Shown piece by piece: positions 2,782 to 61,937 of a stretch of 64,000 nt of DNA; within the stretch, counting starts at the first letter, position 1, and each line of letters begins with the position of its first letter. The translations under genes and the position numbers were made by a program. Below the pieces are notes generated by a model, which was not told the DNA's origin, did not search any database, and saw only the letters and a list, made by a program, of their open reading frames with translations. The stretch is from Macrostomum lignano (Eukaryota). Where the stretch lies: positions 524,967 through 588,966 of the forward strand of contig NIVC01000952.1 of assembly GCA_002269645.1 (NCBI GenBank), read 5' to 3'.

Positions 2782-3637
2782 TGTAGAGTGTTCTACCTCC
2801 CGTTAAAAAAGGAAAAAAGAAGATAATCGTATAATACTACTATAAGTAAGTAAGTACACGCATGTGCGCCTAAGCTTTGAATGAATCACGCTACCAGAAA
2901 AAGATGTTACCAGAATAATACGCCATGAGCCATTTTCCCCTTTTAGCGCAACACGTGAATTGTCATGATACTATTTTGGATCAAAAACTTGTCTATAAAT
3001 ACAAGCGATCTGAAGCGGTACCGGAGCCATTCTCCCCACGGAAGAGGAGCGCTCCGAAGAGGAAGCCTTAGGAGGACTTCCTGATATACCAAGTCAATCG
3101 AGACTCGGTCGAGTTGTTGCGGTAAGCCTTCCTTATTTGCGCCGTTGTGTTAGAGACGTCTCGCTCAAGTCTATTGAGACTTGAGTCTATTTGAGTCTGT
3201 TGAGACTCTTGAGTCTGTTTAGACTCCATTGGTTGCAGTCTCCAGAAGGACTGCCCCTGATAGATCTTAGAGGACTATCTGTGGTTTCCGGAGCTATACC
3301 TAGAGTGCATAGAGGCACTGCTAGAAGAAGGAGGCTTAATTTAGACCGCAGTTTGGCGCAGGGATCCCACTGTTAATTCGGAAGCTTCCCATTGGTCCGA
3401 GCGACAGAATCCGGCCGGAACTATTTGAAGAAGAAAGAAGAATCGGACCCGATCTACAAACGAAAGTCAGAAGTGACTATACGAGAGCAACTGAAGACAA
3501 TCGAGAACTACTCCGAGAGATCTCCAAAGGACTCAAGGTAATTGAATACCTTCTGTTGACTTACTGGGTTGCCTAGCTGCTGAGCTAGAAGTGATTGTTC
3601 CTTGATTATCGAAAGTCGGGTAATAAGGAACACATCA
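2782..3637 (+). repeat. 5' LTR (856 bp)
   Basis: TGTAGAGTG...AACACATCA, identical by eye to 12511-13366. TATA-like TATAAATA near 2995. Confidence 0.97.
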
Positions 3638-3639
3638 AT

Positions 3640-3650
3640 TGGTGATCTCG
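3640..3650 (+). promoter_or_regulatory. Primer-binding site, tRNA-Trp-like
   Basis: TGGTGATCTCG starts 2 nt after the LTR. It resembles the TGGTGACCCCG complement of the tRNA-Trp 3' end with two G:U wobbles; the tRNA identity is tentative. Confidence 0.65.
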
Positions 3651-4352
3651 CCCTCTCGGCACTACTCAAACCTTGAGCAATAGCCTGGCCAAGCTATTGT
3701 AAAGTGACGACAGAGCGACTTCATTAATTTTGCGCGCACGTGTTAGAGTTAACACTTTTCAAGTCCGTACGTTTTGAAACTCGAGTAAAAAATTTTGGTG
3801 TACAGGTTTGAGCACCTGTCAAATTTGAGTACAGTTTGAGCACGCGTGTTAAATTTTGTTTTAACGAGCTCGAGCAAGTGTGAGTTAAAATAAAACTGAA
3901 ATTAAATTCATCGGTACACTGAAAACAAACCGAAAATAAAAGAATCGTCGACGCAAAACAAACAAAAAAATAACGGAAACATTTTGCCGGCACAAAAAAC
4001 TAAAACCGAAATTAATTGAAACTTCGTGAAGAGCGGAGTTAAGTGACAAAAGAGAGAGAGTCAAAGAAGAAAAAAAAAAAGAATTTGCAAAGCAAGAAGA
4101 CAAGTCCATCCTAACTTGAAGATACACTTTGCGGGACGCCGCATAAGTGCGAAATCAGCAAGCGAACAGAACAAGTTCATTTGAGGACAACCAGTGGCAG
4201 CAAGCCACACCGCATCCGAGGCCAGCGAATAACAAATCGACACCACAAGACAATTCGTTACAGTCGAGGTTTATTCCGAGGCAAACACCACACTGGACGA
4301 TCCGTTACAAATCGATCCAGATCTTGAACTACCGTTCTATCCTATCAACAAC

Positions 4353-5201
4353 ATGGCGCGGCGCAATCCAACGGTACACAGAGACATCAAAGAAACGGTC
4401 GGTACCTTCTCGATGGAGAAAGATTTTAACACATTTGTCGACCACTTTGACCTGGTATGTAGGGAATACAACCTACAAAATCCAGAGAAGGCACAGCTGC
4501 TGCCACCTCTTCTCCAAGGTACTGCGCGAGAAATTTACGGCAAGCTGGATGCAGCAACACAGCAAAATTATCCAGCACTAATCATTCAACTGCGCGCGCA
4601 TTTCAACCGTTGCGGCACAAACAGATCAGTGCTGCTGCACAAGTTACATAACAGAAGGATGCAAGCAACAGAATCCTTCCTCGCCTTTGTGGACGATATC
4701 CGCCAGATAATTAAGGCACTGCATCAGCCACCGCTGCAAGCTGCGGACCAACCGCCACTGGGAGCGGCAGAATTGGCCGCCAGAGAAAGACAACGATTGA
4801 TGGATCGCGAACAAAACCTCATCCTGCACGTAATAAACAACGCACAGCCGTCACTTCGGGATAGACTTTTGCGTGAAAATATCGAAACCGAAGAAGACCT
4901 TTTGCGGTGCGGAATGCAGTGGGAAGCCAGTGCCCCATTAATGACGACAGGCAACAATGAAGTGCAGAAACTGACGCAGCAACTAAACAAGTTAATGCAG
5001 CACCAGACAGCTGCTATCGCCGAACAAAAAAGACGAAATGAACAAGCCCAGCCAGATGTTACTACTGCGGACAAGAAGGACATTATCAGATTAATTGTCC
5101 TCATTGGTCAACAAGATACGACAAGCCGCGACAGATATTCAACAATCAGAAGCCGCAGAAACCATGGCAGCAATATCAAAATCGCCAACAACAAAGCATA
5201 A
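4353..5201 (+). CDS. gag: Gag capsid region; the real Gag continues in the -1 frame from ~5050
   Basis: Gag-like helical ORF (FSMEKDFNTFVDHFDLVCREYNL...LLQGTAREIY...MQATESFLAFVDDI). A CCHC knuckle follows in the next frame. Confidence 0.9.
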   Translation: MARRNPTVHRDIKETVGTFSMEKDFNTFVDHFDLVCREYNLQNPEKAQLLPPLLQGTAREIYGKLDAATQQNYPALIIQLRAHFNRCGTNRSVLLHKLHNRRMQATESFLAFVDDIRQIIKALHQPPLQAADQPPLGAAELAARERQRLMDREQNLILHVINNAQPSLRDRLLRENIETEEDLLRCGMQWEASAPLMTTGNNEVQKLTQQLNKLMQHQTAAIAEQKRRNEQAQPDVTTADKKDIIRLIVLIGQQDTTSRDRYSTIRSRRNHGSNIKIANNKA

Positions 5202-6574
5202 GACGCGTCGGAAATGATAGACGCTTCGGAAATAATGACCGCTCCGGAAATGATGGCCGCTTCGGAAACGAAGGCCGCTTCAGAAATAATGGCTACAGGC
5301 CACGCAATGCCAGGTACGCACAAAGACAGCCAACGCAAGCAATGCCACGATACGCGAATGCCATCACGTACACACCGGAAAATGAGCAGCAGGAACAGCA
5401 AGTGTTCACAATTGACGACTTGGAAATGGACTTCACAGTCCCGGAACTTGACATCAGCTTGATCGAAAAGAAGACGACGCACGAGGACAACACTGACAAC
5501 ACAGAAGAGGCGAATGAAACCGAAATGATCGAATTAAAAGAGACCACCGGAGACAGCAGAGAAAACAGGAAGAAAGTAAATCACAAGAAAAGGGAGGAGA
5601 CGGAGAGCGACACCGGCAACGAAGAAAAGATGAAGACTGGCAGAGAAAACAACTATGAATCGACAACAGTGGATGACGAAAAAACAAGCACGAAAGACAA
5701 AGAAATGAAGGAAGAAGAAGAATGTATAAGTTGCGGCAACGATCACGACTGCGAAGTGCATGATGATACGAATGGATACCGAGCCGAAGAAGGAATGCAG
5801 GAAGAACTGAGAGCGGAAAATCTAAGTTCCGACAGCGATCAAGGCTACGAAATACAATGGAAAGATGAAGAAATGGAAAAAGAACAAATGAAAGAAAAGC
5901 CGAGTTCCGACAGCGACGAATGCTACGAGATCCGATACAAACGAAATGGTGAAGCCTATATTCAAACGGTCGACTACAAGGCAGAGAAAAGATACCAAAC
6001 GCAATGGAGTGAAACAACGGAAACATCGGAAGAAGCTACAGACGAAGATACTGAAATAACCAAAGAGCAAAGCAAATCAGAAGCCTTCCGCCTGAATCAG
6101 CCAATGGAACAACCGAAAGAATACGATGCGGACATGGAGGATAACGAATGGCAATCGCAGCCAATGCCAGCAAAGACAACGGCAAGGTCCAAGAAGTGGA
6201 AAAACTGGCTGCTCTGGATCATCGTGATACTACTGATAGCAGTAGTCGCCAAAGCAACGGCAATGGAGAAACCAATGATATGTCCAACGGATGCGCATAT
6301 CCAACCAATGATCTACAAGATACCAACCGACATCAAATGCAGCTACTTCAAGACAAACCAGACGAAGCCAAAGAAGATCACAATTGATCTCTACAAAGCT
6401 AACATCAAGAAGCATCGACAACTCGGAATAGTGTGCTTTAGAGACAAGCACCTAGTGGAAAAAGTTTGGCGAGGACAGTGGAACAGAATTCGATTTTGGC
6501 AACACGAACACATGTGTCGCACGCTGAATGTCTACAATGGAACCAAACACTGTTCTCAAAGGATGGTCAGCTAG
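5048..6574 (+). CDS. Gag zinc knuckle, R-x-G-N repeats, acidic spacer, Env signal peptide and Env N-terminus
   Basis: CYYCGQEGHYQINC at 5057-5098 is in frame with ORF 5342..6574. Five 18-nt repeats at 5204-5293. KKWKNWLLWIIVILLIAVVAKATA at 6191-6262, then MICP...KC. Confidence 0.85.
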   Translation, partial: PARCYYCGQEGHYQINCPHWSTRYDKPRQIFNNQKPQKPWQQYQNRQQQSIRRVGNDRRFGNNDRSGNDGRFGNEGRFRNNGYRPRNARYAQRQPTQAMPRYANAITYTPENEQQEQQVFTIDDLEMDFTVPELDISLIEKKTTHEDNTDNTEEANETEMIELKETTGDSRENRKKVNHKKREETESDTGNEEKMKTGRENNYESTTVDDEKTSTKDKEMKEEEECISCGNDHDCEVHDDTNGYRAEEGMQEELRAENLSSDSDQGYEIQWKDEEMEKEQMKEKPSSDSDECYEIRYKRNGEAYIQTVDYKAEKRYQTQWSETTETSEEATDEDTEITKEQSKSEAFRLNQPMEQPKEYDADMEDNEWQSQPMPAKTTARSKKWKNWLLWIIVILLIAVVAKATAMEKPMICPTDAHIQPMIYKIPTDIKCSYFKTNQTKPKKITIDLYKANIKKHRQLGIVCFRDKHLVEKVWRGQWNRIRFWQHEHMCRTLNVYNGTKHCSQRMVS

Positions 6575-8055
6575 AACCGGATGAGAAAGTGGGGGAGGCA
6601 CAACTTTACCGAACGAAGAACTCAGCAAACGGACGATATGTACACTTTTCGGAAGCATGGACTAACTACATGACACGAAACAGTTACCTAATCAGGAATA
6701 TTCCATTCTATCACAATCCTTTTGAAAAAATGGAGTCGCTACAACTGCAATTAAGCGACTGCCGATACAGCAAAGGATGGTGTCCAACACCAATTCTACG
6801 GAAGGAAGAATTACACAGTCTACCACTGAGTCCAACATATCATCAAAACTATCGATGGCAGATTGAGCACAGAGCACACTCACACTATGAGGAACCGTAC
6901 AAGTCACGACAATATTTCTTCGCATGGGAAGTAGAGCCGGAAATTGACTGCAAGCTTCAAAAGTATCACACAGTGGAAGGAGGACTACTGTCGAATACAT
7001 TTTTGGCAAAAGCAGGAGACTTGGCCTTGACGTTTCAAAAGAAGCCGGACGAACAAGAACTCAAATGCAAGAATACGGACAAGACGCTGTTCATCTCGGA
7101 GCAAGAAATACCAGTCTATGTAAAGGATGGTGACAAACAAACCTTCCTGGCAATCATAAACGGAACATATCAGCAACAAGAAAGACAGCGACGCGACATA
7201 GAACGTCCACGATTGGTGTCGAACCGACTACTGTCAGCAAAGATCACGGCTTTAGATCACAATCTGCATAACCAGCTAAATCACCTACATCGATCACTGG
7301 TTCAGTTAACTTGCAAGATGCACGCAATCAACTTGAACTACGCAAGACAAAACTACTATGTCAACCCTACGATGACATTTCGCAAGATCACTGGAATGAG
7401 AGAGGTTCTGGCAATTCCGATATATGGACATCTCCTGATATACAAGTGCACGCCGATACAGCACTTCAACATCTTGCCGTCGAATACTTCAACAACTTGC
7501 TACGACAAGCCGAGAATTGAAGCATTCTACGAAGGCAAAAGGATCCAAGGATTCTTGGACACGGTACACAACATTATCGTTGGCACCGCCATACCAAGAC
7601 CGTGCACCACGGCAGCAAACTACTATCAACTGGACAATGCACTACACGTCATCAAAACAACTGGAACGACAGCAAACGTCACAGAACCGGAAGTAATCGT
7701 CGACGAAAACTACGACATGGAGGATTTGAAAATCCGATTCAACAGAACGAAGTATACGCCATTCGCCGATATCCAACTTGACGAGATAACACCAGGATGG
7801 ACGATCAACGACTTCTTGCAAGCGTTCATCACCCAACGTAAGATGATTCACCAGCTGTTCACAAGAAAGGACAAAGGAACCGGGACAGGAAGATTTCCCG
7901 TCCTTGTTTCAATGGACAGCGCCATCAAATCATTTTGGACAAATAGCTTCTGGGAGCTGCTCAATGGAAGAGGCAGTCTCTATCAAGGATTCATCTTCTA
8001 CGGTGCTTGCATTGTGTGGATTGTCACGGCAATCTTCATCATTTCATCGATCGTA
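6191..8055 (+). CDS. env: Envelope glycoprotein, class III (gB-like), with one -1 break in the 6466-6574 overlap
   Basis: Signal peptide; Cys-rich ectodomain; six N-glycosylation sequons (NQT x2, NGT, NTS, NVT, NRT); furin site RQRR at 7183-7194; gB-like helix ...CKMHAINLNYARQNYYVNP...KC...CYDKP; TM at 7990-8055. Confidence 0.8.
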
Positions 8056-10881
8056 CGGTGCTTCAGTCAAACTTGTCCAAGAGCTAAGAAGACAGTGAAT
8101 GCCATAATGCAAAGAACGACAACGGAAAGCGACAACAGTTTAGAACTAACAGAAACTGCACATTGTGAGGTTCAAGGGCAACCGACACTAGCAACGCGGC
8201 TATATCCATCGATTCCGACAACACCAACGGCACCAAGGATACAACCACCCAACTATCAAGCAGAACAGCACGAGCCAAAATGGCCGGAAAACTACGTCTG
8301 TACGCTACACGCCGAGATTGGCAAAGCAATGGCTCAGGTCATTGTCAACAACTTGCCATGTCGAGCACTACTGGATTCAGGCAGCTCGATCACAGTCATC
8401 TCGCAACAATTATGCAACAAGCTACGACTCGCGGTACGACCAGCAGCAATCGCAGTTGCAGGAGCAGGAGGACATTCACTCAACATCCTAGGAAAAGCAG
8501 ATATCGACTTGAAAATTGCTAATAAACAGCTGACGGTCCCGACGTACATCATCGACAGACTACCAAACCAAGACGTCATCGTTGGAATCGACACGTTCAA
8601 GCAGCTTCAACTACCATTGACCTTCGACTTCAACAAGCAAACGTTTAGGATCGACACGGTGGAGCAACCGCTGATCAACCAGATTCGAGTACTACCGAAA
8701 GTAACTCTGCAGCAAGATGTCATTATCCAGCCTGAAAGCGCATGCTGGGTCAGAGCGAAAACGACCAGCGCGGCAGATGAAGCAATGATATTTGATCCAC
8801 ACAGGAGAGTCACGGCAAAACATCAAATCATGATGCCTACGGCACTAGTGCTGGTTGCAAAGGATAAGCAACTGCCAGTACAAATCTTCAACCCGAACAC
8901 AGAAACGGTTCATCTACGACAAGGAATGTGCATCGGTCATCTCAACACCCAAGCATCGGTTATGCTGATTGAACAAGCGACTCCACGACTAACAGAGGAA
9001 GAATTTCAAAAGAAGATCAATTTGGATGACAGCCCGATTACGGAACAGCAAAAGAGGAAAGTTCGACAGCTGTTGTGGAAGTACAACGAAGCCTTCTGCC
9101 ATCATGATTACGACATCGGACGAGCCAAGGACATCAAACAGGAAATCAAACTTCTGCCGCACACGGAACCAATTCAGTGCAAGCCGTACCCGATCGCCAA
9201 GCATCTGCAACAACACTTTGACGAAATCATCGATAAAATGCTAAAGCACGGCATCATCAGCAAAGCTATTTCGGCTTACTCCTCACCGTGCCTACTGGTA
9301 CAGAAGAAGGAGACAAACGAAAGACGACTCGTATGCGACTTCAGACTGTTGAACAAGTACATACCGACGGATCAGCAAAGCCTACCGAAGATCTCCGAAC
9401 TACTAGCAAAGCTCAACACGGCAAAATTGTTCACGGTGTTCGACCTACGTCATGGATTTTGGCAAATTGAAATCGAGAAAGAGTCACGACAGTACACGGC
9501 TTTCAAAACCTACAATGGACAAGTATACGAGTACAATCGATCGCCGATGGGACTCAGCAACAGCCCAGCAACGATGAGCCGACTAACAGCATACATGCTT
9601 GCAGGATGCACGAACCTGTTGCACTATGTTGACGACATCTTGGCCCACGGAGAAGACTTCGAACGACTCTATGAAGCGACGGAGAAGGCCCTCGCGCTTA
9701 TACAACGTCAAGGTCTGAAGCTACAACCAACTAAATGCAAATTCTTCCGAGACAACGTGCGTTACCTGGGACATCAGGTGACAGCCAAAGGAATCTCACC
9801 GGACCCAGACAACGTGGAAAAGGTGAAGAAGTTTCCTACGCCAACCAGTATAACGAAGGTCCAATCATTCCTTGGACTTGCGCAATACTTCAGGAAGTTC
9901 TTACCTAACTTCGCAAAGACAGCAAAGCCACTGTACGACCTGCTCAAGTTCGACAAATGGAAGCAAGACAACTGGACACAGAGACAACAGGAAAGTTTCG
10001 ACGAAATCAAACGACAGCTGACATCAGACGCACTGCTACAGCATCCGGACTTCGACAAGCCCTTCATCATCGAGACAGACGCCTCAGGAACGGGACTCGG
10101 AGCAGTCCTACTACAGGAAACCGAGGACAAGAAGGAACGACCTATTGCTTACGTCAGTCGAGCACTCAAACCAAATGAGACAAAGTGGTCAGCTACGGAA
10201 CGAGAGCTACTAGGAGTCTTGTTCGCCCTGCGACAGTTTCATTACTACATCTATGGTTCTCCAATACAGACGATAGTACGCACGGATCATGCACCATTGA
10301 CCTACGTCGTAACTACAAAAGGACAGACCAACAACCGACTCATCAGGATGACACTCAAGATCCAGGATTACAACTACAAACTCGTCTACAAACCAGGAAT
10401 TACCAACAAAGCCGCGGACGCCCTGTCAAGAGCCTATGAAGTCAACGCCATTCATCCAATCCCTAACATCAAGGAGTTGGTGGATGAAACCGAGCGCGAC
10501 AACTTCTACCAAGCGGTTAAAGACGACGACAAGAACATCCAACTCAGCCCCATGGAACGAAAATTCCTACGCAAGCAACGACAACACCTAACAATCAATA
10601 AGTCACGGCTCTACTGGATGAGCGACAATAAACCCAAGATCTACGTACCATATTCGTTTCGGCAAGCAATCTCAACGAGCTGCACGACAACCCACTCGCT
10701 GGACACCTGTCGGCCGCAAAGACCATCGCGAGAGTGGAACAATACTACTTTTGGCCAACTATGTACGGCGACATCAAGCAGTATTGCAACAACTGCCATT
10801 CATGTGCTGCATCAAAGACAGGACGACGACAGAAACCGCAGCTACAGTCCATTCCGAAGTCGACTACAATGGACTGTCTAA
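6466..10881 (+). CDS. pol: Env C-terminal part fused in frame to Pol (aspartic protease, RT, RNase H)
   Basis: LLDSGS protease (D at 8374), YVDD RT (9625-9636), ETDASG...ELL...TDH RNase H, all in the same frame as the furin site and TM. Confidence 0.95.
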   Translation: MARTVEQNSILATRTHVSHAECLQWNQTLFSKDGQLEPDEKVGEAQLYRTKNSANGRYVHFSEAWTNYMTRNSYLIRNIPFYHNPFEKMESLQLQLSDCRYSKGWCPTPILRKEELHSLPLSPTYHQNYRWQIEHRAHSHYEEPYKSRQYFFAWEVEPEIDCKLQKYHTVEGGLLSNTFLAKAGDLALTFQKKPDEQELKCKNTDKTLFISEQEIPVYVKDGDKQTFLAIINGTYQQQERQRRDIERPRLVSNRLLSAKITALDHNLHNQLNHLHRSLVQLTCKMHAINLNYARQNYYVNPTMTFRKITGMREVLAIPIYGHLLIYKCTPIQHFNILPSNTSTTCYDKPRIEAFYEGKRIQGFLDTVHNIIVGTAIPRPCTTAANYYQLDNALHVIKTTGTTANVTEPEVIVDENYDMEDLKIRFNRTKYTPFADIQLDEITPGWTINDFLQAFITQRKMIHQLFTRKDKGTGTGRFPVLVSMDSAIKSFWTNSFWELLNGRGSLYQGFIFYGACIVWIVTAIFIISSIVRCFSQTCPRAKKTVNAIMQRTTTESDNSLELTETAHCEVQGQPTLATRLYPSIPTTPTAPRIQPPNYQAEQHEPKWPENYVCTLHAEIGKAMAQVIVNNLPCRALLDSGSSITVISQQLCNKLRLAVRPAAIAVAGAGGHSLNILGKADIDLKIANKQLTVPTYIIDRLPNQDVIVGIDTFKQLQLPLTFDFNKQTFRIDTVEQPLINQIRVLPKVTLQQDVIIQPESACWVRAKTTSAADEAMIFDPHRRVTAKHQIMMPTALVLVAKDKQLPVQIFNPNTETVHLRQGMCIGHLNTQASVMLIEQATPRLTEEEFQKKINLDDSPITEQQKRKVRQLLWKYNEAFCHHDYDIGRAKDIKQEIKLLPHTEPIQCKPYPIAKHLQQHFDEIIDKMLKHGIISKAISAYSSPCLLVQKKETNERRLVCDFRLLNKYIPTDQQSLPKISELLAKLNTAKLFTVFDLRHGFWQIEIEKESRQYTAFKTYNGQVYEYNRSPMGLSNSPATMSRLTAYMLAGCTNLLHYVDDILAHGEDFERLYEATEKALALIQRQGLKLQPTKCKFFRDNVRYLGHQVTAKGISPDPDNVEKVKKFPTPTSITKVQSFLGLAQYFRKFLPNFAKTAKPLYDLLKFDKWKQDNWTQRQQESFDEIKRQLTSDALLQHPDFDKPFIIETDASGTGLGAVLLQETEDKKERPIAYVSRALKPNETKWSATERELLGVLFALRQFHYYIYGSPIQTIVRTDHAPLTYVVTTKGQTNNRLIRMTLKIQDYNYKLVYKPGITNKAADALSRAYEVNAIHPIPNIKELVDETERDNFYQAVKDDDKNIQLSPMERKFLRKQRQHLTINKSRLYWMSDNKPKIYVPYSFRQAISTSCTTTHSLDTCRPQRPSREWNNTTFGQLCTATSSSIATTAIHVLHQRQDDDRNRSYSPFRSRLQWTV

Positions 10882-11835
10882 GCATCGACATCACCGGACC
10901 ACTGCCACCGAGCTGTCTCCAGGGCATCGCCTACACCTACATTCTAACCGCCTTGGATATCTTCTCGAAGTTTGCTATCGCCATACCGATACCGGACATC
11001 ACAGCTCAGGCAGTGGCAGTGAGTTTCTTCAACGAAATATTTGCAAGTACGGCACGCCGAAGAACCTCACATCGGACAACGGATCGCAGTTTACATCGCA
11101 ACTGTTTCAGCAAGTCGTAAGGATTCTCAACATTACGCAGATCTACACATCGACCTACAATCCGAAGGCAAACATGGTTGAACGGTTTCACCGCAACCTG
11201 CACGAGATGATTACACATTTCGCGCACCAACAGCCGGAAGACTGGATCATCTACCTGCAATCTGTAACAATGGCCTACAACAGCGCTATTCATCGATCAA
11301 CGGACAATACGCCATTCTTCCTAATGTTTGGACGAGACTTCCAACGCCGAATCTGCTCGCACAGCAATTGCTACCATCGCAGTACGTGGAAGTACCGACT
11401 TCCATTCAGAAATTCGTCACGCAACTACACCTCGCATGGAAGATCGCCAAGCACAACATTGACAACCAGGTGGCTCTGACCACCGGCAACGACGCGAGAT
11501 CGACAACCCTGACGGCCGGCGACATCGTTTACCTACACTACCCGCCGCAGCAGACGCATAAACATGCACAGAAGTATAAAGGACCCTATCGAGTGGTCCA
11601 ACTAACGTCACCGACAACGGCACGCCTGGCTAATGTACAAGATCCACATCAGCACCAGTTCTACGTACACATTCATCGACTAAAGAAGATCAACACTGAC
11701 ACCGCGACGTTTCTACCGACATTAGACAACGCTGATCGCACGCGTTCAACGAACCGCCACATCGCGACGAAGCACGAGGAGACTCAAACGACAGATGTGA
11801 GCCAGCCACATGGCTACAACCTACGACCACGCTAG
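10671..11835 (+). CDS. pol: Integrase (HHCC, DDE, GPY), broken by three single-base gaps
   Basis: LHDNPLAGH...CNNCHSC, SIDITGP, SDNGSQF, VERFHR, KGPYRV. Gaps at ~10671 (c/cc), ~11041 (ttt/tttt) and ~11343 (aa/aaa). Confidence 0.92.
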
Positions 11836-11955
11836 AGTTTCGAGAGCAACCCCGTGTAGTGACCGGGATAAAGAATAGCACTACAGCTTCGCAAGCTTGT
11901 CGTAAAAGGCGACTAATCCGAGCGACACAAAGACAGCGACAAATTGGCAACAATT

Positions 11956-12330
11956 ATGGGCAACGCACTGTCGAAACAGGCGCCCCAGCCTCAGCAGCTA
12001 TATGACTGCCCGATATGTTTAACTGATGACTTGGCTGTCAAGCCACCGACTATTTGCATCAACGAACATAAAGTTTGCGGACAATGTTTAAGCGATTCAC
12101 ATTATATTCAGCCATGGCAGAATTGTCCCCTCTGTAGAGATAGTTTGCGACAATGTGCCTATTGTTATTCTTGGCGCACGTTTCAATATTGTAACCACCA
12201 ACATTTTATTTGCATGCACTGTTTGAAGCAAACCGCTAGTAGGGGCGTTATAGGATGCCCCTTATGTAATAGTATGCCGCGAGACTGCACGTTTCGAAAG
12301 TGGTGTCGGATCAAACCTGATGCCACTTGA
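11956..12330 (+). CDS. Accessory protein with an N-myristoylation motif and two tandem C3HC4 RING-like fingers (124 aa)
   Basis: MGNALS...; CPIC-x12-C-x3-H-x2-C-x2-C-x12-CPLC; CAYC-x8-C-x3-H-x2-C-x2-C-x11-CPLC. It lies between the integrase stop and the PPT. Confidence 0.85.
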   Translation: MGNALSKQAPQPQQLYDCPICLTDDLAVKPPTICINEHKVCGQCLSDSHYIQPWQNCPLCRDSLRQCAYCYSWRTFQYCNHQHFICMHCLKQTASRGVIGCPLCNSMPRDCTFRKWCRIKPDAT

Positions 12331-12495
12331 TGTCTACGCGATATTCGAGTTTTGACCGCAATATGTACTGAAAAGTTTTTAGAGTTTTGACCAAACCCTC
12401 GCTTCACTAGACGCGCACAAAATCAATTGTTTATTTCCTATATTAACTGATCACCACAGAATTTTATTGTTAAAACTCGGGACGAGTTTTTTCGT

Positions 12496-12507
12496 AAAAA
12501 AGGGAGA
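12496..12507 (+). promoter_or_regulatory. Polypurine tract
   Basis: AAAAAAGGGAGA, 3 nt before the 3' LTR. Confidence 0.85.
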
Positions 12508-12510
12508 TTT

Positions 12511-13366
12511 TGTAGAGTGTTCTACCTCCCGTTAAAAAAGGAAAAAAGAAGATAATCGTATAATACTACTATAAGTAAGTAAGTACACGCATGTGCGCCT
12601 AAGCTTTGAATGAATCACGCTACCAGAAAAAGATGTTACCAGAATAATACGCCATGAGCCATTTTCCCCTTTTAGCGCAACACGTGAATTGTCATGATAC
12701 TATTTTGGATCAAAAACTTGTCTATAAATACAAGCGATCTGAAGCGGTACCGGAGCCATTCTCCCCACGGAAGAGGAGCGCTCCGAAGAGGAAGCCTTAG
12801 GAGGACTTCCTGATATACCAAGTCAATCGAGACTCGGTCGAGTTGTTGCGGTAAGCCTTCCTTATTTGCGCCGTTGTGTTAGAGACGTCTCGCTCAAGTC
12901 TATTGAGACTTGAGTCTATTTGAGTCTGTTGAGACTCTTGAGTCTGTTTAGACTCCATTGGTTGCAGTCTCCAGAAGGACTGCCCCTGATAGATCTTAGA
13001 GGACTATCTGTGGTTTCCGGAGCTATACCTAGAGTGCATAGAGGCACTGCTAGAAGAAGGAGGCTTAATTTAGACCGCAGTTTGGCGCAGGGATCCCACT
13101 GTTAATTCGGAAGCTTCCCATTGGTCCGAGCGACAGAATCCGGCCGGAACTATTTGAAGAAGAAAGAAGAATCGGACCCGATCTACAAACGAAAGTCAGA
13201 AGTGACTATACGAGAGCAACTGAAGACAATCGAGAACTACTCCGAGAGATCTCCAAAGGACTCAAGGTAATTGAATACCTTCTGTTGACTTACTGGGTTG
13301 CCTAGCTGCTGAGCTAGAAGTGATTGTTCCTTGATTATCGAAAGTCGGGTAATAAGGAACACATCA
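12511..13366 (+). repeat. 3' LTR (856 bp)
   Basis: Same sequence as 2782-3637, followed by TGCA. Confidence 0.97.
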
Positions 13367-13494
13367 TGCAGACCCTCGGCCTGGCAGGTCAGCAATTCGC
13401 TGCTGCAGGTCACAGGCCGGCCATCGCACTGTGCCTGGTGCAGCAGCAGGGGCACCGAGTTGCTCGACTCCCAATCGGGTGCTGTCAAGGAGAT
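13367..13494 (-). CDS. VWDE-like gene, last exon (5' part, interrupted by the LTR element)
   Basis: Acceptor ttgaacag|ATC. Reads ISLTAPDWESSNSVPLLLHQAQCDGRPVTCSSELLTCQAEGL, in frame with the upstream exon across an 87-nt GT-AG intron (13495-13581). Confidence 0.75.
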
Positions 13495-13581
13495 CTGTTC
13501 AAGTCAGGGGGTTGGTGAAATTTTATGTAAAAGCACTGAGATTGAAGGCTACCCGCAGTATTTATGCAAATGAGCACCCAC

Positions 13582-14664
13582 GTTAAGAAGCATATACATT
13601 CGAACGTCTTCGACCAGACTATCGTGCATGTCTTGCAGCTCGCACTTCACAATGTCTCCGCTGATGTAAGCAGACGGTGCCGAGTAATTGAGGCTGGAGT
13701 TCACATGAATGTCGCACACCGAGTCAGTGGACTTCAGCAACGGTTTCACTCTCAAGTAAACAGCCGTGCATCTGTCCGAGGCGCAGAAGATGTTCCGCTG
13801 CAGCAGCTCGACCTCTATGGGCATTTCGTCTCGTCTGGCGATCTCAAACTCGCAGCTGGGACCCCAGAACCCGTGGACACACGTGCATTCACCGCTAAAA
13901 CATTGGCCTCTACCTGAGCAGTTTGCTGGGCACAGATCATCGACCAGAGCTTCAATCTTGCTGGAGTTTCCCAACACCGCGGTTGCGTTGTATGTCATTT
14001 CAGTGTAGCACATGCCCAGCATCGAGTTGAACAGGGACTGTGTTGAGTCGAATGTTCCAAGCACAGTGGCGTACTGAGCACAAATCACTTTGAACTGACT
14101 AATGTAATCTGCTTGACCGGTGGGATCTTTCACTTGAGCACAGATCTCAGTGCTAACGGACTTGCTCAACTGAAGCTGCACGAACGTGTTGCAGAACTCA
14201 TCGGCCTCCTGCTGTGAAATTTCCCGAGTCTGAATCTGTCGTATGGGTTCGATTTGTGATTTCAATACCGTCTGTGCAGCTTCTCTTCTGTCTCGTCTTG
14301 TATTTTCAAGGGAAACAAAGCAATTGCTTCTGGTCATTTGGGCATCGTTGCAGGTGCAGATGCCAAGAATTTCGGTCGGCTGCATTCTGGAAAATTCGCA
14401 GACCTTCGGCATCTCGTAGAATGAGTGAAATAAACTTTTTGATGAATCTGCGATCGGCTCCCTTTGCGTTCCAAATATTAAACCATCGACTAAATTTTGT
14501 GTATCGTAAAATCCTGACACAATCATCAAATCCAAGGCAATACGATCGCCGATTTTGACCACGTACATGTATCCCTTGCAGGCCGAATCTGTTTCGAAGT
14601 TTCTCATACTTTCGCTATTCATGACAAAGCTATACAGACGGAGCTGCCCATCGAAAAGGCCCAA
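13582..14664 (-). CDS. VWD/EGF-domain (VWDE-like) extracellular protein, large exon; 5' boundary uncertain
   Basis: 371-aa ORF with a VWD-like segment (VKIGDRIALDLMIVSG...DGLIFG), a Cys-rich region and an EGF motif CPANCSGRGQCFSGECTCVHGFWGPSC. Donor AAC|gtgggt. Confidence 0.7.
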
Positions 14665-14902
14665 ACATGGAGAATAGTTCCATACAGATCGAACTGAACT
14701 TTCATTGCAGCTCCAACATTCTCTACCTTAACTCCAAATGGTAGTCAATCGGGCTTAATCGGAAGAGTTCGCTTCTGTTCACCTTTGGGTGGCAAATATT
14801 TAATTTTGGATAGTTCCTGAAGAGCTGCTACCACAAATTCGGATAATATAGTAGAAGTATCTTATTGCTATCTCAGTTGCATACCAGTTCTTGCCATCCA
14901 TC

Positions 14903-15297
14903 CTGTCCGTCAAAAGTTCCGGAACCCTTGCTACGATGTCTTCTAGCGGACATAATTTCAGTCCGTTTCAATTGTAACTTGATTCAAATGAAAGCTGCGG
15001 ATCTCAGCTCCATGATGTGGTCAAGAAAAAGTTTATTCGAAGGAGCGCGTGTGAAAAATGTGAACAGGCCAGTGTTTGTTCAATTGCTTGTTTGTCTTTT
15101 CCTCACTTTTTTTCTCTAACCTTTATGTACATAACACTGGCCTGTTCACACGCGCTCCTTCGAATAAACTTTTTCTTGACCACATCATGGAGCTGAGATC
15201 CGCAGCTTTCATTTGAATCAAGTTACAATTGAAACGGACTGAAATTATGTCCGCTAGAAGACATCGTAGCAAGGGTTCCGGAACTTTTGACGGACAG
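14903..15297. mobile_element. Foldback/MITE-like element with ~170-bp inverted arms
   Basis: 14903-15076 is the reverse complement of 15133-15297 apart from a 9-nt insertion in the left arm. Spacer is 56 nt; TSD not clear. Confidence 0.8.
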
Positions 15298-16489
15298 TAT
15301 ACATTCATCTGTATTTCGTATGGAAGCATCTTATGATATAGGAGAGTCTAATGACCATGGTGGATTTTGTCCTATAGCTCGGCTCAATTTCAGTTAAGAG
15401 GCCTCGAACTCGAACGAAATCAAATCGATAGTCGGAGGGATTCGAAGAGAGACGGATTCTAATCAAGCCACTAGCTTGCACTGTGACTAGGCCCAAATTC
15501 AAATGCACTGGAGCCGAAGATGCGCATACAGGCCCGGAGGTTTTATGTCTTTGCACTTAAATAAGCCCCGTATTTCCGCCCGCGATTGCACCCTAAAGCA
15601 GACTTGGGGGCTGGTATAGTTTGTGTCCACTGGAACAATTTTTGTCCTTGAGTAAGACACTTAGCTCTGCATTGCTTCAGTTCACCCAGCATTAGCTGGT
15701 TGGTTTAATTGGGTGTGTGCTTGGCGACCACCCAGTCCCTGGACTGAACAGCCGTACGAAGCCTTCAGATGCACCGCGCAATGGCTGGGGCTGAGCTGTC
15801 GGTTGCACTTACAAAGCCTCCAACAGCTCGTGGTGGCACTGAATCCGATCAAGAATTTTAAACTTTTGAGCCGGTTTAACGTCTGCACATGTTTTGCAGA
15901 TGGTCGTGGATTGCGTTTGCCTTATTGCAGTGTTCGTCCATCCTGGTGTACAGGTGACTATCAGTCTTACCGCTGGCTCTGCTTAGCAGGGTACGTGGAG
16001 GGAACTTTGCTTTTTAGGCGCGTTACAAAATTGGCTACTTTTAAGTTAGTATTGAAGCTATCATGAATGCGCATAAGATGGTATACGTCGTGAATTAGAA
16101 AATATATTATATCAAATAATCTAAATATACTAAATCTTCTACTATACTATTATACGAATTCATATAACTTACTCAATAGTGCATGCATTTAATAATGTAT
16201 TGATATAATAATAAAATTTCTAAAGTGAAGTAGCATCTGTAAACAGTTTTAGGACCTGAATATATGTATCAACTATATGGGGGGTTAATCCGCGGCTAAT
16301 CCGCTGTTAAGTCCGCGGTTAATCCACCGCCTGCGTTGGTAAAGCGCTCGCTCGATTCTAAACAAAACCAAAACAACGAAAAAGAATCGTTGGTAGCAAG
16401 GGAAGGGAAGGAAGCGCTAATTAAAGCTTAATAAATCGCAATCCATGCAGAAATTGCAGAAATAGTTCCAAATTGGAGGGATGCTGATC

Positions 16490-17596
16490 CAGGGCCGTAG
16501 CCAGAGGGGGGGCAAGGGGGGCCGTGGCCCCCCCAATCACCAACTCTGGCCTTGGCGCCCCCCCCCCTTAAAAGAAACTGGCGCCCCCCCACCCTAAAAG
16601 AAACTGGCGCCCCCCCCTAAAAGAAACTGGCGCCCCCCCCCCCCTTAAAGAAAGTGGCGCCCCCCTCTAAAAGAAAGTGGCGCCCCCCCCCCCTAAAAGA
16701 AACTGGCGCCCCCCTATAAGAAAGTGGCGCCCCCCCTAAAAGAAACTGGCGCCCCCCCCCCTAAAAGAAACTGGCGCCCCCCCCTAAAAGAAACTGGCGC
16801 CCCCCCCTAAAAGAAACTGGCGCCCCCCCTAAAAGAAACTGGCGCCCCCCCCCTTAAAGAAAGTGGCGCCCCCCTCTAAAAGAAAGTGGCGCCCCCCCCC
16901 CCCTAAAAGAAACTGGCGCCCCCCTATAAGAAAGTGGCGCCCCCCCTAAAAGAAACTGGCGCCCCCCCCTAAAAGAAACTGGCGCCCCCCCCTAAAAGAA
17001 ACTGGCGCCCCCCCCTAAAAGAAACTGGCGCCCCCCCCTAAAAGAAACTGGCGCCCCCCCCCTTAAAGAAAGTGGCGCCCCCCCTCTAAAAGAAAGTGGC
17101 GCCCCCCCCCTAAAAGAAACTGGCGCCCCCCTATAAGAAAGTGGCGCCCCCCCTAAAAGAAACTGGCGCCCCCCCCCTAAAAGAAACTGGCGCCCCCCCC
17201 TAAAAGAAACTGGCGCCCCCCCCCTAAAAGAAACTGGCGCCCCCCCCCCTAAAAGAAACTGGCGCCCCCCCCTTAAAGAAAGTGGCGCCCCCCCTCTAAA
17301 AGAAAGTGGCGCCCCCCCCTAAAAGAAACTGGCGCCCCCCTATAAGAAAGTGGCGCCCCCCCTAAAAGAAACTGGCGCGCCCCTATAAGAAACTGGCGCC
17401 CCCCCCTATAAGAAACTGGCGCCCCCCCCCCCCTATAAGAAACTGGCGCCCCCCCCCCCTAAAAGAAACTGGCGCCCCCCCCCCCTATAAGAAACTGGCG
17501 CCCCCCCCCTAAAAGAAACTGGCGCCCTCCTATAAGAAGCTGGCGCCCCCTAACTCACGCCCCCCCCCCCAATCAAAATTCCTGGCTACGCCCCTG
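16490..17596. mobile_element. Non-autonomous hAT element filled with a ~23-25-bp tandem array
   Basis: TIRs CAGGGCCGTAGCCAG / CTGGCTACGCCCCTG (14/15); 8-bp TSD TGCTGATC at 16482-16489 and 17597-17604; internal unit TAAAAGAAACTGGCG(C)n. Confidence 0.9.
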
Positions 17597-17829
17597 TGCT
17601 GATCTCTCGGTGAAACTCACTAGAAGTTTAAGCGTCACGTACCATGGCGCTCCTGAAGCCTTTAATGATTTATCTGTAACCAACATGCCCCTAAAGTAGC
17701 CTCAGACTCAGCAGATTATTTTGAGAATTTCGGGTAGGCATTTTACTCAGTCTAATTATCCAAGCTGCAACTTGTGATAAGGATTGGTTGGAGGCCAATG
17801 ATACCAGCCGGACATCGGCAACCATCACG

Positions 17830-19770
17830 CAGAGGCGTCGCCATGGAGTTTATGGTAGGGGGGGGGGGCGACAAAATCAAGGATTTTACAAGTGCATGAC
17901 TAAATTCCTACATGTACATTATTTTGGGAGTCGGTGTTGTTATAGCACTCATTTTGGAGCCGCAGACACTCATTTTGGAGCCGCAGACACTCATTTTAGC
18001 CGCAGACACTCATTTTGGCCGCAGACACTCATTTTGGGGCCGCAGACACTCATTTTGGCCGCAGACACTCATTTTGGCCGCAGACACTCATTTTGGCCGC
18101 AGACACTCATTTTGGCCGCAGACACTCATTTTGGCCGCAGACACTCATTTTGGCCGCAGACACTCATTTTGGCCGCAGACACTCATTTTGGCCGCAGACA
18201 CTCATTTTGGCGCCACAGGCACTCATTTTGGGGCCGCAGACACTCATTTTGGCCGCAGACACTCATTTTGGGGCCGCAGACACTCATTTTGGAGCCGCAG
18301 ACACTCATTTTGGCCACAGACACTCATTTTGGCCGCAGACACTCATTTTGGCCGCAGGCACTCATTTTGGCGCCACAGGCACTCATTTTGGAGCCGCAGA
18401 CACTCATTTTGGCCGCAGACACTCATTTTGGGGCCGCAGACACTCATTTTGGCCGCAGACACTCATTTTGGCGCCACAGGCACTCATTTTGGAGTCGCAG
18501 ACACTCATTTTGGAGCCACAGGCACTCATTTTGGAGTCGCAGACACTCATTTTGGAGCCACAGGCACTCATTTTGGCGCCACAGGCACTCATTTTGGAGC
18601 CGCAGACACTCATTTTGGCCGCAGACACTCATTTTGGGGCCGCAGACACTCATTTTGGCCGCAGACACTCATTTTGGCGCCACAGGCACTCATTTTGGAG
18701 TCGCAGACACTCATTTTGGAGCCACAGGCACTCATTTTGGAGTCGCAGACACTCATTTTGGAGCCGCAGACATTCATTTTGGGGCCGCAGACACTCATTT
18801 TGGAGCCGCAGACACTCATTTTGGCCACAGACACTCATTTTGGCCGCAGACACTCAATTTGGCCGCAGGCACTCATTTTGGCGCCACAGGCACTCATTTT
18901 GGAGCCGCAGACACTCATTTTGGCCGCATACACTCATTTTGGGGCCGCAGACACTCATTTTGGCCGCAGACACTCATTTTGGCCGCAGACACTCATTTTG
19001 GCGCCACAGGCACTCATTTTGGCGCCACAGGCACTCATTTTGGAGCCGCAGACACTCAATTTGGCCGCAGGCACTCATTTTGGCGCCACAGGCACTCATT
19101 TTGGAGCCGCAGACACTCATTTTGGCCGCAGACACTCATTTTGGGGCCGCAGACACTCATTTTGGCCGCAGACACTCATTTTGGCGCCACAGGCACTCAT
19201 TTTGGAGCCGCAGACACTCATTTTGGCCGCAGACACTCATTTTGGGGCCGCAGACACTCATTTTGGCCGCAGACACTCATTTTGGCGCCACAGGCACTCA
19301 TTTTGGAGTCGCAGACACTCATTTTGGAGCCACAGGCACTCATTTTGGAGTCGCAGACACTCATTTTGGAGCCGCAGACATTCATTTTGGGGCCGCAGAC
19401 ACTCATTTTGGAGCCGCAGACACTCATTTTTGCCACAGACACTCATTTTTGCCGCAGACACTCATTTTGGCCGCAGAGACTCATTTTGGCGCCACAGGCA
19501 CTCATTTTGGAGTCGCAGACACTCATTTTGGAGCCACAGGCACTCATTTTGGAGTCGCTGACACTCATTTTGGAGCCACAGGCACTCATTTTGGAGCCGC
19601 AGACACTCATTTTGGAGCCACAGGCACTCATTTTGAAGCCGCAGACACTAATTTTGGAGCCACAGACAGCCATTGCCAAAGGCGCTATGTTTTGGCGCCC
19701 TGAAGCAAAGTTATTGATTTCACGGGGGGGGGGGGCATGTCCCCCTTGTCCACCGGTAGCGACGCTCTTG
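17830..19770. mobile_element. hAT-like MITE with degenerate TIRs carrying a 19/21-bp minisatellite (~17944-19665)
   Basis: Ends CAGAGGCGTCGCCA... / ...GGTAGCGACGCTCTTG with G-runs inside both. Units CACTCATTTTGG(AG/CG/GG)CCRCAGR. No TSD found. Confidence 0.6.
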
Positions 19771-22700: not shown

Positions 22701-22934
22701 ATATTGCCTACTGATTGATGTTGCAGAAAATTCCAACTATTGCTAGCTATGATAATATACTCTGAATATCACAATTTCCGTGCCGATGTAGCAAAATATC
22801 ACAAAAATGTGCAGTCAAATCACCTTGTTGCAGCGAAAGCATTGCATAGCCTATGAAATTTTAAAATCATCTTCATCTCGACCATGCACCCATGCTTGTT
22901 AATTGTTGCTGTGTTGATTCTTTGATATACCAGA

Positions 22935-23450
22935 CATTTCCCCTCCGGTGTTTTCCCTCTGGTGTTTCCCTTTCAGTGTTTTCCTCCAGCGTTTCCGGTC
23001 CGGCATTTTCCCTCCGGTGTTTCCCTTTCGGTGTTTTCCTCCAGCGTTTCCGGTCCGGCATTTTCTCTCCGGTGTTTCCCTTCCGGTGTTTTCCTCCAGC
23101 GTTTCCGGTCCGGCATTTTCCCTCCGGTGTTTCCCTTTCGGTGTTTTCCTCCAGCGTTTCCGGTACGGCATTTTCCCTCCGGTGTTTTCCTCCAGCGTTT
23201 CCGGTCCGGCATTTTCCCTCCGGTGTTTCCCTTTCGGTGTTTTCCTCCAGCGTTTCCGGTCCGGCATTTTCTCTCCGGTGTTTCCCTTCCGGTGTTTTCC
23301 TCCAGCGTTTCCGGTCCGGCATTTTCCCTCCGGTGTTTCCCTTTCGGTGTTTTCCTCCAGCGTTTCCGGTCCGGCATTTTCCCTCCGGTGTTTCCCTTCC
23401 GGTGTTTTCCTCCAGCGTTTCCGGTCCGCCTTTTTCTCTCCGGTGTTTCC
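22935..23450. repeat. 55-bp tandem array (~9 units), with an inverted cognate at ~23700-23770
   Basis: CGGCA recurs at 23001 and 23056. Unit TTTTCCCTCCGGTGTTTCCCTTTCGGTGTTTTCCTCCAGCGTTTCCGGTCCGGCA. Reverse-oriented GGAAAATGTCCGGAGG motifs end at ...AACGCACC. Confidence 0.85.
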
Positions 23451-25043: not shown

Positions 25044-26076
25044 TAGTCTCAGAGATGGGGTTTTAATAGTCTCTGAGATGGGGATTTATTAGCCTCAGAG
25101 ATGGGGATTTATTAGCCTCAGAGATAGGGATTTATTAGCCTCAGGGATGGGGATTTAATAGTCTCAGAGATGGGGATTTATTAGCCTCAGAGATAGGGAT
25201 TTATTAGCCTCAGGGATGGGGATTTAATAGTCTCAGAGATGGGGATTCATTAGCCTCAGGGATAGGGATTTATTAGCCTCAGAGATAGGGATTTATTAGC
25301 CTCAGTGATGGGGATTTAATAGTCTCAGAGATGGGGATTCATTAGCCTCAGGGATGGGGATTTAATAGTCTCAGAGATGGGGATTCATTAGCCTCAGGGA
25401 TAGGGATTTAATAGTCTCAGAGATGGGGATTCATTAGCCTCAGGGATGGGGATTTAATAGTCTCAGAGATAGGGATTTATTAGCCTCAGTGATGGGGATT
25501 TAATAGTCTCAGAGATGGGGATTCATTAGCCTCAGGGATGGGGATTTAATAGTCTCAGAGATGGGGATTCATTAGCCTCAGGGATAGGGATTTAATAGTC
25601 TCTGAGATGGGGATTTATTAGTCTCAGAGATGGGGATTTATTAGCCTCAGAGATAGGGATTTATTAGCCTCAGGGATGGGGATTTAATAGTCTCAGAGAT
25701 GGGGATTCATTAGCCTCAGGGATAGGGATTTATTAGCCTCAGAGATAGGGATTTATTAGCCTCAGGGATGGGGATTTAATAGTCTCAGATATGGGGATTC
25801 ATTAGCCTCAGGGATAGGGATTTATTAGCCTCAGAGATAGGGATTTATTAGCCTCAGGGATGGGGATTTAATAGTCTCAGAGATGGGGATTCATTAGCCT
25901 CAGGGATGGGGATTTATTAGCCTCAGAGATGGGGATTTATTAGCCTCAGGGATGGGAATTTATTAGCCTCAGAGATGGGGATTTATTAGCCTCAGAGATG
26001 GGGATTTATTAGGCTCAAGGATGGCGATTTATTAGCCTCAGGGATGGGGATTTATTAGCCTCAGAGATGGGGATTC
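25044..26076. repeat. 23-bp minisatellite (~45 units)
   Basis: Unit TCAGRGATRGGGATTTATTAGCC; period measured 25093 to 25116. Confidence 0.95.
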
Positions 26077-26112
26077 CTAAACTACCTAAGCAAAATCACA
26101 CAGAGCAAGCGC

Positions 26113-61417: not shown

Positions 61418-61517
61418 AACCAAGCCAATTTCCGTCGCTTCTGCTGTCTTATAAGAAACTGAAAATGCTTGGCGATACCAATTGAGGAAGTCACTTGCAG
61501 GTTGCCTTCACCCGCAG

Positions 61518-61913: not shown

Positions 61914-61937
61914 GTCCGCACTGGCTCAGTATTGCGA

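Follow-up and report, generated by a model that had tools for sequence, protein, structure and literature searches.

The locus described here raises the question of whether a retroelement in the flatworm Macrostomum lignano carries a membrane-fusion protein of the herpesvirus glycoprotein B (gB) type. The window, i.e. the whole stretch of DNA analysed, comprises 64,000 nucleotides of contig NIVC01000952.1, and a sequence-only reading had assigned its segment 6,191-8,055 to an envelope (env) resembling a class III fusogen captured by a Gypsy element. Taken as a whole, the data make it highly probable that the locus is a Ty3/gypsy gag-env-pol element with a gB-type (class III) env that acts by the fusogen mechanism proposed below.

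The assignment of the host is supported by an LTR element of the Ty3/gypsy type at 2,782-13,366, spanning 10,585 nucleotides with the gene order gag-env-pol. It carries LTRs, a primer-binding site, a purine tract and a short target duplication. Outside env, the element is composed as follows:

2,778-2,781 (left) and 13,367-13,370 (right), no strand: TGCA target-site duplication, 4 bp, shared by the flanks at empty sites
2,782-3,637, plus strand: 5' LTR, 856 bp, TG...CA, identical to the 3' LTR
3,640-3,651, plus strand: tRNA primer-binding site, a 12-mer starting 2 nt past the LTR and equal to the 12-mer in a published catalogue row
4,353-5,104, plus strand: gag, with a CCHC zinc knuckle at 5,057-5,104; the reading frame breaks near 5,047 in this copy
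5,105-6,199, plus strand: low-complexity spacer between gag and env, Gln/Arg-rich and then acidic, in the env frame (read from the sequence)
8,335-8,592, plus strand: aspartic protease (Pfam Asp_protease_2, E 9e-10)
9,301-10,371, plus strand: reverse transcriptase (RT, YVDD) and RNase H of Ty3/gypsy type (domain and RT searches)
10,600-11,835, plus strand: integrase with H2C2, core and GPY/F-like motif; in this copy the frame is broken near 10,671, 11,030 and 11,345
11,956-12,330, plus strand: 3' ORF of its own, encoding a RING-like finger and another Cys/His finger (domain searches, siblings compared)
12,511-13,366, plus strand: 3' LTR, 856 bp, with a purine-rich tract just before it (LTR comparison)

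The insertion is shown to be very recent and the element to belong to a multi-copy family. The two LTRs agree at 856/856 positions, and the same genome contains two empty sites (contigs C506 and C180) at which the element flanks overlap by 4 bp. The gag/env spacer differs in length between relatives, and several siblings have a longer version of the 3' RING-like ORF than this copy.

gB-like envs are already known on BEL/Pao elements (PMC13524379; PMC9094657), gag gives a weak DUF1759 match (E 0.0026, below the cut-off), and the order protease-RT-RNase H-integrase found here is also common to BEL/Pao. A BEL/Pao identity with an env of the chuvirus kind, like that of mosquito elements or of Ascaris Tas, is nevertheless very improbable, and this reading is largely refuted. 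The polyprotein has no match to Peptidase_A17, while the YVDD motif and the RT/RNase H are of Ty3 type, with Ty3 itself as the closest PDB RT (E 1e-68). Against 20 BEL/Pao loci of the same genome this RT scores at most 10.5 bits, compared to 56-160 bits against other gypsy-type RTs. In a tree of 45 RT rows, which holds no named gypsy references and in which this RT adjoins a long branch, BEL forms a separate side with a support of 100/100 and this RT lies outside the BEL/Pao clade. The tree omits loci L109-L112, L114-L117, L119, L121, L133, L135 and L136, which were short, low-scoring or duplicate, and 9 of the 20 BEL loci (duplicate or without in-frame RT). The Gypsy host named at the outset thus stands.

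The segment 6,191-8,055 is indeed env, but it is not a single ORF in this copy, a frameshift near 6,510 having gone unstated in the sequence-only reading. Its parts are:

6,200-6,265, plus strand: TM1, internal signal-anchor or signal peptide following a basic patch (hydropathy 2.6; probably cleaved after TM1)
6,275-6,510, plus strand: N-terminal part of the ectodomain, gB domain IV/III/II leader and first fusion-domain hairpin (profile alignment, model)
about 6,461-6,484, plus strand: candidate fusion loop 1, within the first fusion-domain hairpin
6,508-6,511, plus strand: frameshift within env in this copy, as assembled (frame comparison with other loci)
6,511-7,182, plus strand: fusion and PH-like domains of the ectodomain (alignment, model, fold search)
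about 6,634-6,660, plus strand: candidate fusion loop 2
about 6,784-6,924, plus strand: lineage-specific insertion of ~38 residues in the fusion-domain region
7,183-7,194, plus strand: furin-type site RQRR (motif) in a flexible linker preceding the central helix (linker pLDDT<50 at model residues 302-315)
7,222-7,362, plus strand: long central helix (gB domain III), 47 residues, H320-366 (model; paired in the alignment with the core helix of EBV gB)
7,363-7,983, plus strand: gB domain IV-like beta crown, domain V-like extended arm and membrane-proximal helices (alignment, model, fold search)
7,987-8,055, plus strand: TM2, the C-terminal anchor of env, from which the frame runs stop-free into pol (ORF list, hydropathy)

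The first ~80 ectodomain residues are encoded in the ORF at 5,042-6,574 and the remainder in that at 6,442-10,881, so that this copy, as assembled, is unable to make the whole env. The break may reflect a dead copy or an assembly error; identical LTRs together with frame breaks at five places and aligned frames free of premature stops suggest the latter. At 13 of the 20 best-matching loci env is read through in one frame, and 6 of 8 copies picked for long frames carry a single frame of 2,480-2,538 codons. In unbroken siblings one reading frame thus extends from gag to integrase, placing env inside one polyprotein of ~2,500 amino acids. By hydropathy, a sibling polyprotein of 2,498 amino acids contains exactly two hydrophobic segments, which flank the ectodomain on either side. 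Among 150 database relatives, the pol domains follow env C-terminally within the same chain in 48 and precede it in none.

All motifs on which the gB comparison had been based were found, albeit over two frames: MICP at 6,275, LYKANIKK at 6,389, the following Cys at 6,434, VEKVW at 6,455, RQRR at 7,183, LTCKMHAINLNYARQNYYVNP at 7,306, IYKCTPI at 7,438 and CYDKPRI at 7,498. All six predicted N-glycan sequons fall within the frames that code for env (6,356; 6,541; 7,159; 7,483; 7,675; 7,741), and the distance from MICP to the second hydrophobic segment, about 571 codons here and 574 amino acids in siblings, agrees with the estimated ectodomain of ~575 residues. Hydropathy and the six sequons together give the features of a type I topology, i.e. 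a signal, a sequon-bearing ectodomain and a C-terminal TM anchor.

The class III, gB-like nature of env is supported by profile searches, the cysteine register of EBV gB, an AlphaFold model and three PDB fold searches. In a first PDB profile search, gB accounts for the top 12 of 14 matches (best E 2.2e-13), and in a second for 51 of 51 (best E 7.3e-18). Seven of the 12 env cysteines align with cysteines of EBV gB, six of them in two included stretches and the seventh in a non-significant one; we take these EBV gB positions to be the disulfide cysteines of gB. Searches from one sequence had almost no power to find relatives: a phmmer search with the single sequence gave nothing significant in the PDB (5 hits, E>=0.66), a word-indexed protein search returned one relative among 3,472 candidates, and an Atlas hit (0.90, 167 shared features) had a low recognition score and is weak on the tool's own scale.

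The AlphaFold monomer (pLDDT 81.2, pTM 0.60; pLDDT 80.0 in a repeat run) shows the class III layout, in which a PH-like domain hosts the fusion domain as an insertion, together with a long central helix and a beta crown. The PH-like domain is modelled as discontinuous (model residues ~30-298), and the candidate fusion loops fall at the hairpin E47-66/E69-79 and the loop 114-129. With this model, Foldseek retrieves KSHV gB from the PDB (E 2.1e-21, TM 0.47) and gB in all 33 rows listed, at whole-chain TM-scores of 0.40-0.48 and rmsd values of 12-18 A. A VIA-align search of 48,161 chains gave nine chains at Z>=5, all nine of them class III fusogens: gB reaches Z 11.0 (rmsd 8.8, 430 aligned), followed by Chandipura G (6.1), Bourbon GP (5.9) and Thogoto GP (5.5). 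Domain IV of PRV gB is matched at Z 10.7 (rmsd 3.5, 162 aligned). The 50 VIA-align rows listed include neither class I nor class II fusogens, and none of these, nor any cellular protein, outranks class III as best match. A trimer prediction of residues 315-574 in three copies, made with the alignment unused, scored 0.14 (mark 0.32), which speaks neither for nor against a trimer.

Herpesvirus gB (EBV 3fvc, KSHV 9cu4, HSV-1 2gum) and env share the order of their domains, the central helix, the fold of domain IV, the cysteine register, a furin site located in the linker that precedes the helix, and two candidate fusion loops. They differ in that identity is 10-17%, gB has 10 cysteines (PMC12240383) and env 12, and the matches of the PH-like region of env are to single PH domains and to rhabdovirus G.

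Seven env sequences of the same genome, with identities down to 24-26%, have all 12 ectodomain cysteines in common, and in a 77-sequence alignment each corresponds to Cys in 55-75 of 58-75 aligned rows; the env motif pattern therefore exceeds chance. R-x-K/R-R is found at the furin site in 56 of 74 aligned relatives. An aromatic F/W is present in loop 1 in 46/61 rows and in loop 2 in 64/67, against 0.22 as the median of 411 windows, the rows being related rather than independent. For five unsaturated pairs the env dN/dS is 0.05-0.10, and the two env frames of this copy give 0.03 and 0.06. Judged from these ratios, env is shown to be under purifying selection, which could stem partly from keeping frame and topology for Pol.

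This last point bears on a reading in which the gB-like domain is real but has lost its fusogen function and is kept as a membrane tether of Gag and Pol, with intracellular assembly and movement only within the cell. An env locked in frame between gag and pol is hard to lose piecemeal, one disulfide pair usual in relatives is absent, and the fusion-domain region carries the ~38-residue insertion. A tether, however, would need two TM segments and not an ectodomain of 574 amino acids; cysteines, furin site and aromatic loops are all kept at 24-26% identity, and the low dN/dS speaks against a tether-only role. The missing cysteine pair is jointly absent in 20/66 rows and jointly present in 43/66, so that its loss is a normal variant. 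We therefore regard a mere tether as quite unlikely and retain the gB-type fusogen.

As to the origin of env, PF24664 (Monjiviricetes_fusion) is matched by 35/66 alignment members and herpes Glycoprotein_B by 2/66, and the best named BFVD matches are rhabdo-like and nyamivirus glycoproteins (E 3e-22 and 8e-22). The Monjiviricetes/Chuviridae glycoproteins share the class III fold and are the best Pfam family, but env scores 24.5 bits (E 8e-6), below the curated cut-off of 27 bits. A recent acquisition from an RNA virus (chuvirus, nyamivirus or rhabdo-like), rather than inheritance with pol since early animals, would accommodate these matches, and for elements of nematodes a capture of this kind is proposed in the title of Sacco et al. 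(2022). Yet identity to every viral BFVD match is 9-14%, with herpes gB comparable (E 7e-21), and envs have already diverged to 24-26% identity inside this one genome. Named relatives of the same layout come from one flatworm and two nematodes, none of the 33 pattern matches from a scan of viral contigs was confirmed as a relative, and PMC13524379 favours an ancient association of env with pol. Recent capture is thus unlikely, and as regards the donor, env matches RNA-virus G and gB to a similar degree.

A gB-type env on a Gypsy element and the order gag-env-pol are already published: Chary & Hayashi (eLife 2026, PMC13524379) describe gB-type GAG-ENV-POL Ty3/gypsy 'errantiviruses' in flatworms, which share with the present element the Ty3/gypsy pol, the ectodomain between two TMs and many near-identical copies, while this copy differs in being frameshifted. 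The two families are very probably the same. The catalogue entry Platyhelminthes_Rhabditophora_Mlig_errantivirus_2 (PMC13524379; 16 copies) has an identical 12-nt primer-binding site, an LTR of 863 (856 here) and a span of 10,591 (10,585 here); the family match is drawn from the primer site, the dimensions and the type of env. The main text of PMC13524379 does not contain 'polyprotein', 'fused', 'in-frame', 'RING', 'zinc' or 'accessory', although its figures or sequence files may show the in-frame layout. In the literature searched, we found no earlier description of either the in-frame polyprotein or the 3' RING gene; Sacco et al. (2022) may already describe the polyprotein.

The mosquito chuvirus-like envs of Dezordi et al. 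(2020) are reported to reside on BEL/Pao elements, whereas the host here is Gypsy. Atlas virus of hookworm (PMC9094657) resembles the present element in being an LTR element of an invertebrate whose LTRs are identical and whose fusogen lies in one long polyprotein. It belongs, however, to the belpaoviruses, its fusogen is of class II and placed C-terminally (Gag-Pol-Env), and experiments have been carried out on its membrane activity.

In the mechanism that we propose, the polyprotein would be synthesised at the ER and span its membrane twice, with Gag cytosolic, the env ectodomain luminal (glycosylated and disulfide-bonded) and Pol cytosolic behind TM2. Signal peptidase would cleave after TM1 and furin at RQRR, and the element's own protease would release Gag and the Pol enzymes. 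On budding particles, env trimers could then bury their two aromatic loops in the membrane of a target and fold back into a post-fusion hairpin, in the manner of gB and rhabdovirus G. From these features we infer fusion activity of env, and the result would be cell-to-cell transfer of the element, probably into germline or stem cells.

As a discovery this matters little, since the kind is already in print (PMC13524379). Its value lies in the material, a young multi-copy family with a strongly constrained env. Herpes gB requires gH/gL, and how gB-like envs enter without them is a question left standing in PMC13524379. Unlike the herpesviruses, the element encodes no gH/gL partner and its env would be cut from a retroelement polyprotein. 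A natural ectodomain of this family would offer a direct test of such entry and would bear on the origins of class III fusogens.

A more far-reaching joint reading is possible, though we consider it less likely than not: an infectious agent of retrovirus type, still active today in an invertebrate (probably a flatworm), that makes Gag, a stand-alone gB-like fusogen and Pol at 1:1:1 from a two-pass polyprotein and whose variable set of RING-finger accessory genes would act as ubiquitin ligases against host silencing. On this reading env would be a minimal gB that dispenses with gH/gL for fusion. None of the sequencing runs listed is recorded as RNA; 19/24 contain at least half of the element's words, their RNA status being guessed or unknown. 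No GT..AG junction skipping env was seen among 15 of 16 joints displayed, in contigs that drop rare forms. Contigs of four runs, guessed to be RNA, cover 30/30 bins of the element.

The same genome also holds several more divergent env families, and 11/30 matches from other env families lie above the PF24664 cut-off.

Every envelope motif quoted by the sequence-only reading is found in the window, over a span of 6,275-7,518. About 571 codons run from MICP to the anchor (claimed ectodomain length ~575 aa) and the six claimed N-glycan sequons are located within the env frames. The observation is confirmed with the addition of a frameshift: env of the window copy is split over two ORFs, a feature absent from the earlier account, and switches frame at about 6,508-6,511.

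Features of the element in the window
2,782-13,366: element, 10,585 bp
3,640-3,651: primer site
5,042-6,574: ORF with zinc knuckle, acidic spacer, hydrophobic segment and first ~80 ectodomain residues
6,442-10,881: ORF with the remaining env, then protease, RT and RNase H
11,956-12,330, + strand: 3' ORF with a RING-like finger and a second Cys/His finger, between integrase and 3' LTR

A single env sequence gave no significant match in the PDB and stayed below threshold against PF24664 (E 8e-6, 24.5 of 27 bits). With a profile of seven sequences from this genome, gB took the top 12 of 14 PDB matches (EBV gB, E 2e-13), and a 77-sequence profile returned gB only (51/51). In the seven-sequence profile alignment, EBV gB cysteines match the N-terminal pair C-x18-C, the one in the helix and the three of domain IV; gB itself has ten cysteines, two fusion loops and a furin linker (PMC12240383). 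We then modelled the ectodomain of a natural sibling with AlphaFold2 (pLDDT 81.2, pTM 0.60); a second run used an overlapping alignment and is thus not an independent repeat.

Features of the AlphaFold2 model (model residues)
47-79: long beta hairpin
after loop 114-129: second long strand
302-315: disordered furin linker
320-366: 47-residue helix
after the listed helix: beta crown

Foldseek placed KSHV gB first (E 2e-21, TM 0.47), with gB in all 33 matches listed. A Foldseek-free search of 48,161 chains gave nine at Z≥5, every one class III: post-fusion gB (Z 11.0, rmsd 8.8, 430 aligned), gB domain IV (Z 10.7, rmsd 3.5, 162 aligned), other gB chains (Z 10.2-6.7) and the non-gB proteins Chandipura G (6.1), Bourbon (5.9) and Thogoto (5.5), PH domains ranking next at Z ≤4.5. 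A further fold search agrees (best Z 12.3). Among predicted viral structures, rhabdo-like, nyamivirus, entomopoxvirus, herpes gB and chu-related glycoproteins are intermixed at 9-14% identity. Thus, profile, model and fold-search results make it certain that env is, by its modelled fold, a class III fusogen, while the donor is not certain. The earlier interpretation of a class III, gB-like env is supported.

A DNA search of the genome gave at least 43 matches (40 of 95 candidates scored), 40 of which, the window among them, are 88-100% identical over 1,900 or more of the 2,501 bases. Env reads in one frame in 13 of the 20 best loci, and in 8 the reading extends from the gag knuckle across env to the protease. 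A single frame from gag to integrase (2,480-2,538 codons) is present in six of eight longer stretches, picked for long frames; the resulting polyprotein contains two hydrophobic segments and no more, one on either side of the ectodomain. The genome also has env families of like layout that are more distant, with identities of 62-63% and 24-26%. In the best 150 of 435 relatives from the database, with domains located by means of the element's own sequences, pol domains follow env in one chain in 48 and precede it in none; a hydrophobic segment lies before env in 21 and after it in 24 of 29 env-pol chains. Three of ten relatives looked up had species names (one flatworm, two nematodes).

As a side observation, at least three divergent gag-env-pol families (env identity 24-26%) and a closer one (62-64%; loci L059-L068 on contigs C103, C1189, C1524, C2598, C4628 and others; L052-L054) have env fused in frame with protease wherever the frame is unbroken. 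Between copies (L051, L055, L057, L058) synonymous divergence is uneven along the polyprotein, with dS of 0.03 in gag, 0.35 in env and 0.85 in protease for L051 and L055, which suggests that co-existing subfamilies recombine.

What we observed is the anatomy; the steps of the proposed mechanism are drawn from what is generally known about class III fusogens and translocation into the ER. The polyprotein would cross the membrane twice, leaving Gag and Pol in the cytosol and env in the lumen, and signal peptidase, furin and the element-encoded protease would cut it. Predicted env trimers on budding particles would then insert their loops and refold. For the family, we regard this mechanism as a whole as highly probable. 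Its main rival, in which env would serve as a membrane tether without fusion, is improbable; F or W occupies the two candidate loop positions in 46/61 and 64/67 rows, the rows being related. Env is under strongly purifying selection (dN/dS 0.048-0.098, five unsaturated pairs), with lower values for RT-RH (0.007-0.016). All 12 env cysteines are near-invariant across aligned relatives, and 56 of 74 rows carry a furin motif. A cysteine pair common among relatives is missing here (66 rows: both present 43, both absent 20, single 3).

In the fusion-domain region, an insertion of ~38 residues (6,784-6,924, + strand) has low model confidence. It is common to all env families of this genome and one database relative, eight of 72 rows (seven from this genome) having 44-50 residues where the remaining 64 have 8-10. 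It may be a receptor-binding or shielding loop. By eye, the published flatworm alignment has an extended gap in a similar position.

A gB-type env on a gag-env-pol gypsy element is already known. Such envs are described on Ty3/gypsy elements across animals (Chary & Hayashi, eLife 2026, PMC13524379), with GAG-ENV-POL order in Nematoda, Bryozoa and Platyhelminthes, ectodomains sometimes flanked by two TM domains, AlphaFold trimers with five gB domains, and an env-pol link read as ancient rather than a recent capture. Its catalogue entry Platyhelminthes_Rhabditophora_Mlig_errantivirus_2 (ENV_HSV, 16 copies) shares the element's 12-nt primer site, and has an LTR of 863 against 856 and a span of 10,591 against 10,585. 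Compared by primer site and catalogue data rather than env sequence, the two are very likely the same family. Ascaris Tas also carries a gB-like env, and Atlas virus provides a single-polyprotein precedent, although its env is class II (PMC9094657).

The main text of PMC13524379 makes no mention of polyprotein, fused, in-frame, RING, zinc or accessory, and our literature search found no description of the element's 3' RING ORF; the forced single frame and this separate ORF may therefore be undescribed so far. The ORF occurs in every subfamily compared (15 Cys/His invariant in six sequences; also L051:8234-8938, L052:8342-9034 and 8898-9647) and has 151 matches in the genome. Some copies carry it as tandem paralogues, and many, the window copy included, have it shortened. 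Its dN/dS of 0.13 and 0.20 (two pairs) indicates purifying selection. Pfam RING scores are mostly below cut-off, and viral RING proteins make up the closest Atlas clusters (0.91, a weak match); the protein is a putative ubiquitin ligase.

The claimed Gypsy host stands: in pol (order PR-RT-RH-IN), the RT matches Ty3 best in the PDB (E 1e-68; next family 9e-48), and 11 BEL/Pao RTs of this genome, none scoring above 10.5 bits with the RT of the window, take their own side of a 45-row tree (100/100) whose long branches and lack of named gypsy references leave the finer position of the window RT unsure. A TGCA duplication flanks the element at both ends. Two empty versions of the site (contigs C506 and C180) have flanks that are 92-99% identical and overlap by exactly 4 bp, and the insertion is therefore very recent. 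The LTRs (856 bp each) are identical at 856/856 positions; together with five frame breaks (near 5,047, 6,510, 10,671, 11,030 and 11,345), this probably fits assembly error better than decay. If the breaks are assembly indels, broken-copy counts for this genome may be overestimates.

The landing site is apparently the last coding exon of a minus-strand host gene (2,662-2,781 and 13,367-13,500, - strand), with an EGF-domain ORF upstream (13,549-14,727, - strand). The flanks are readable in compatible frames, and past the element the gene finishes with a hydrophobic C-terminal tail. Besides the two near-identical empty sites, the genome has three paralogues at ~80%. At 14,900-15,300, an inverted repeat of 156 nt resembles a small foldback element, and much of the remaining window consists of minisatellite arrays with units of 18-30 nt:

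16,535-19,710: minisatellite array
22,827-26,200: minisatellite array
41,575-46,958: minisatellite array
50,992-53,125: minisatellite array
60,871-64,000: minisatellite array
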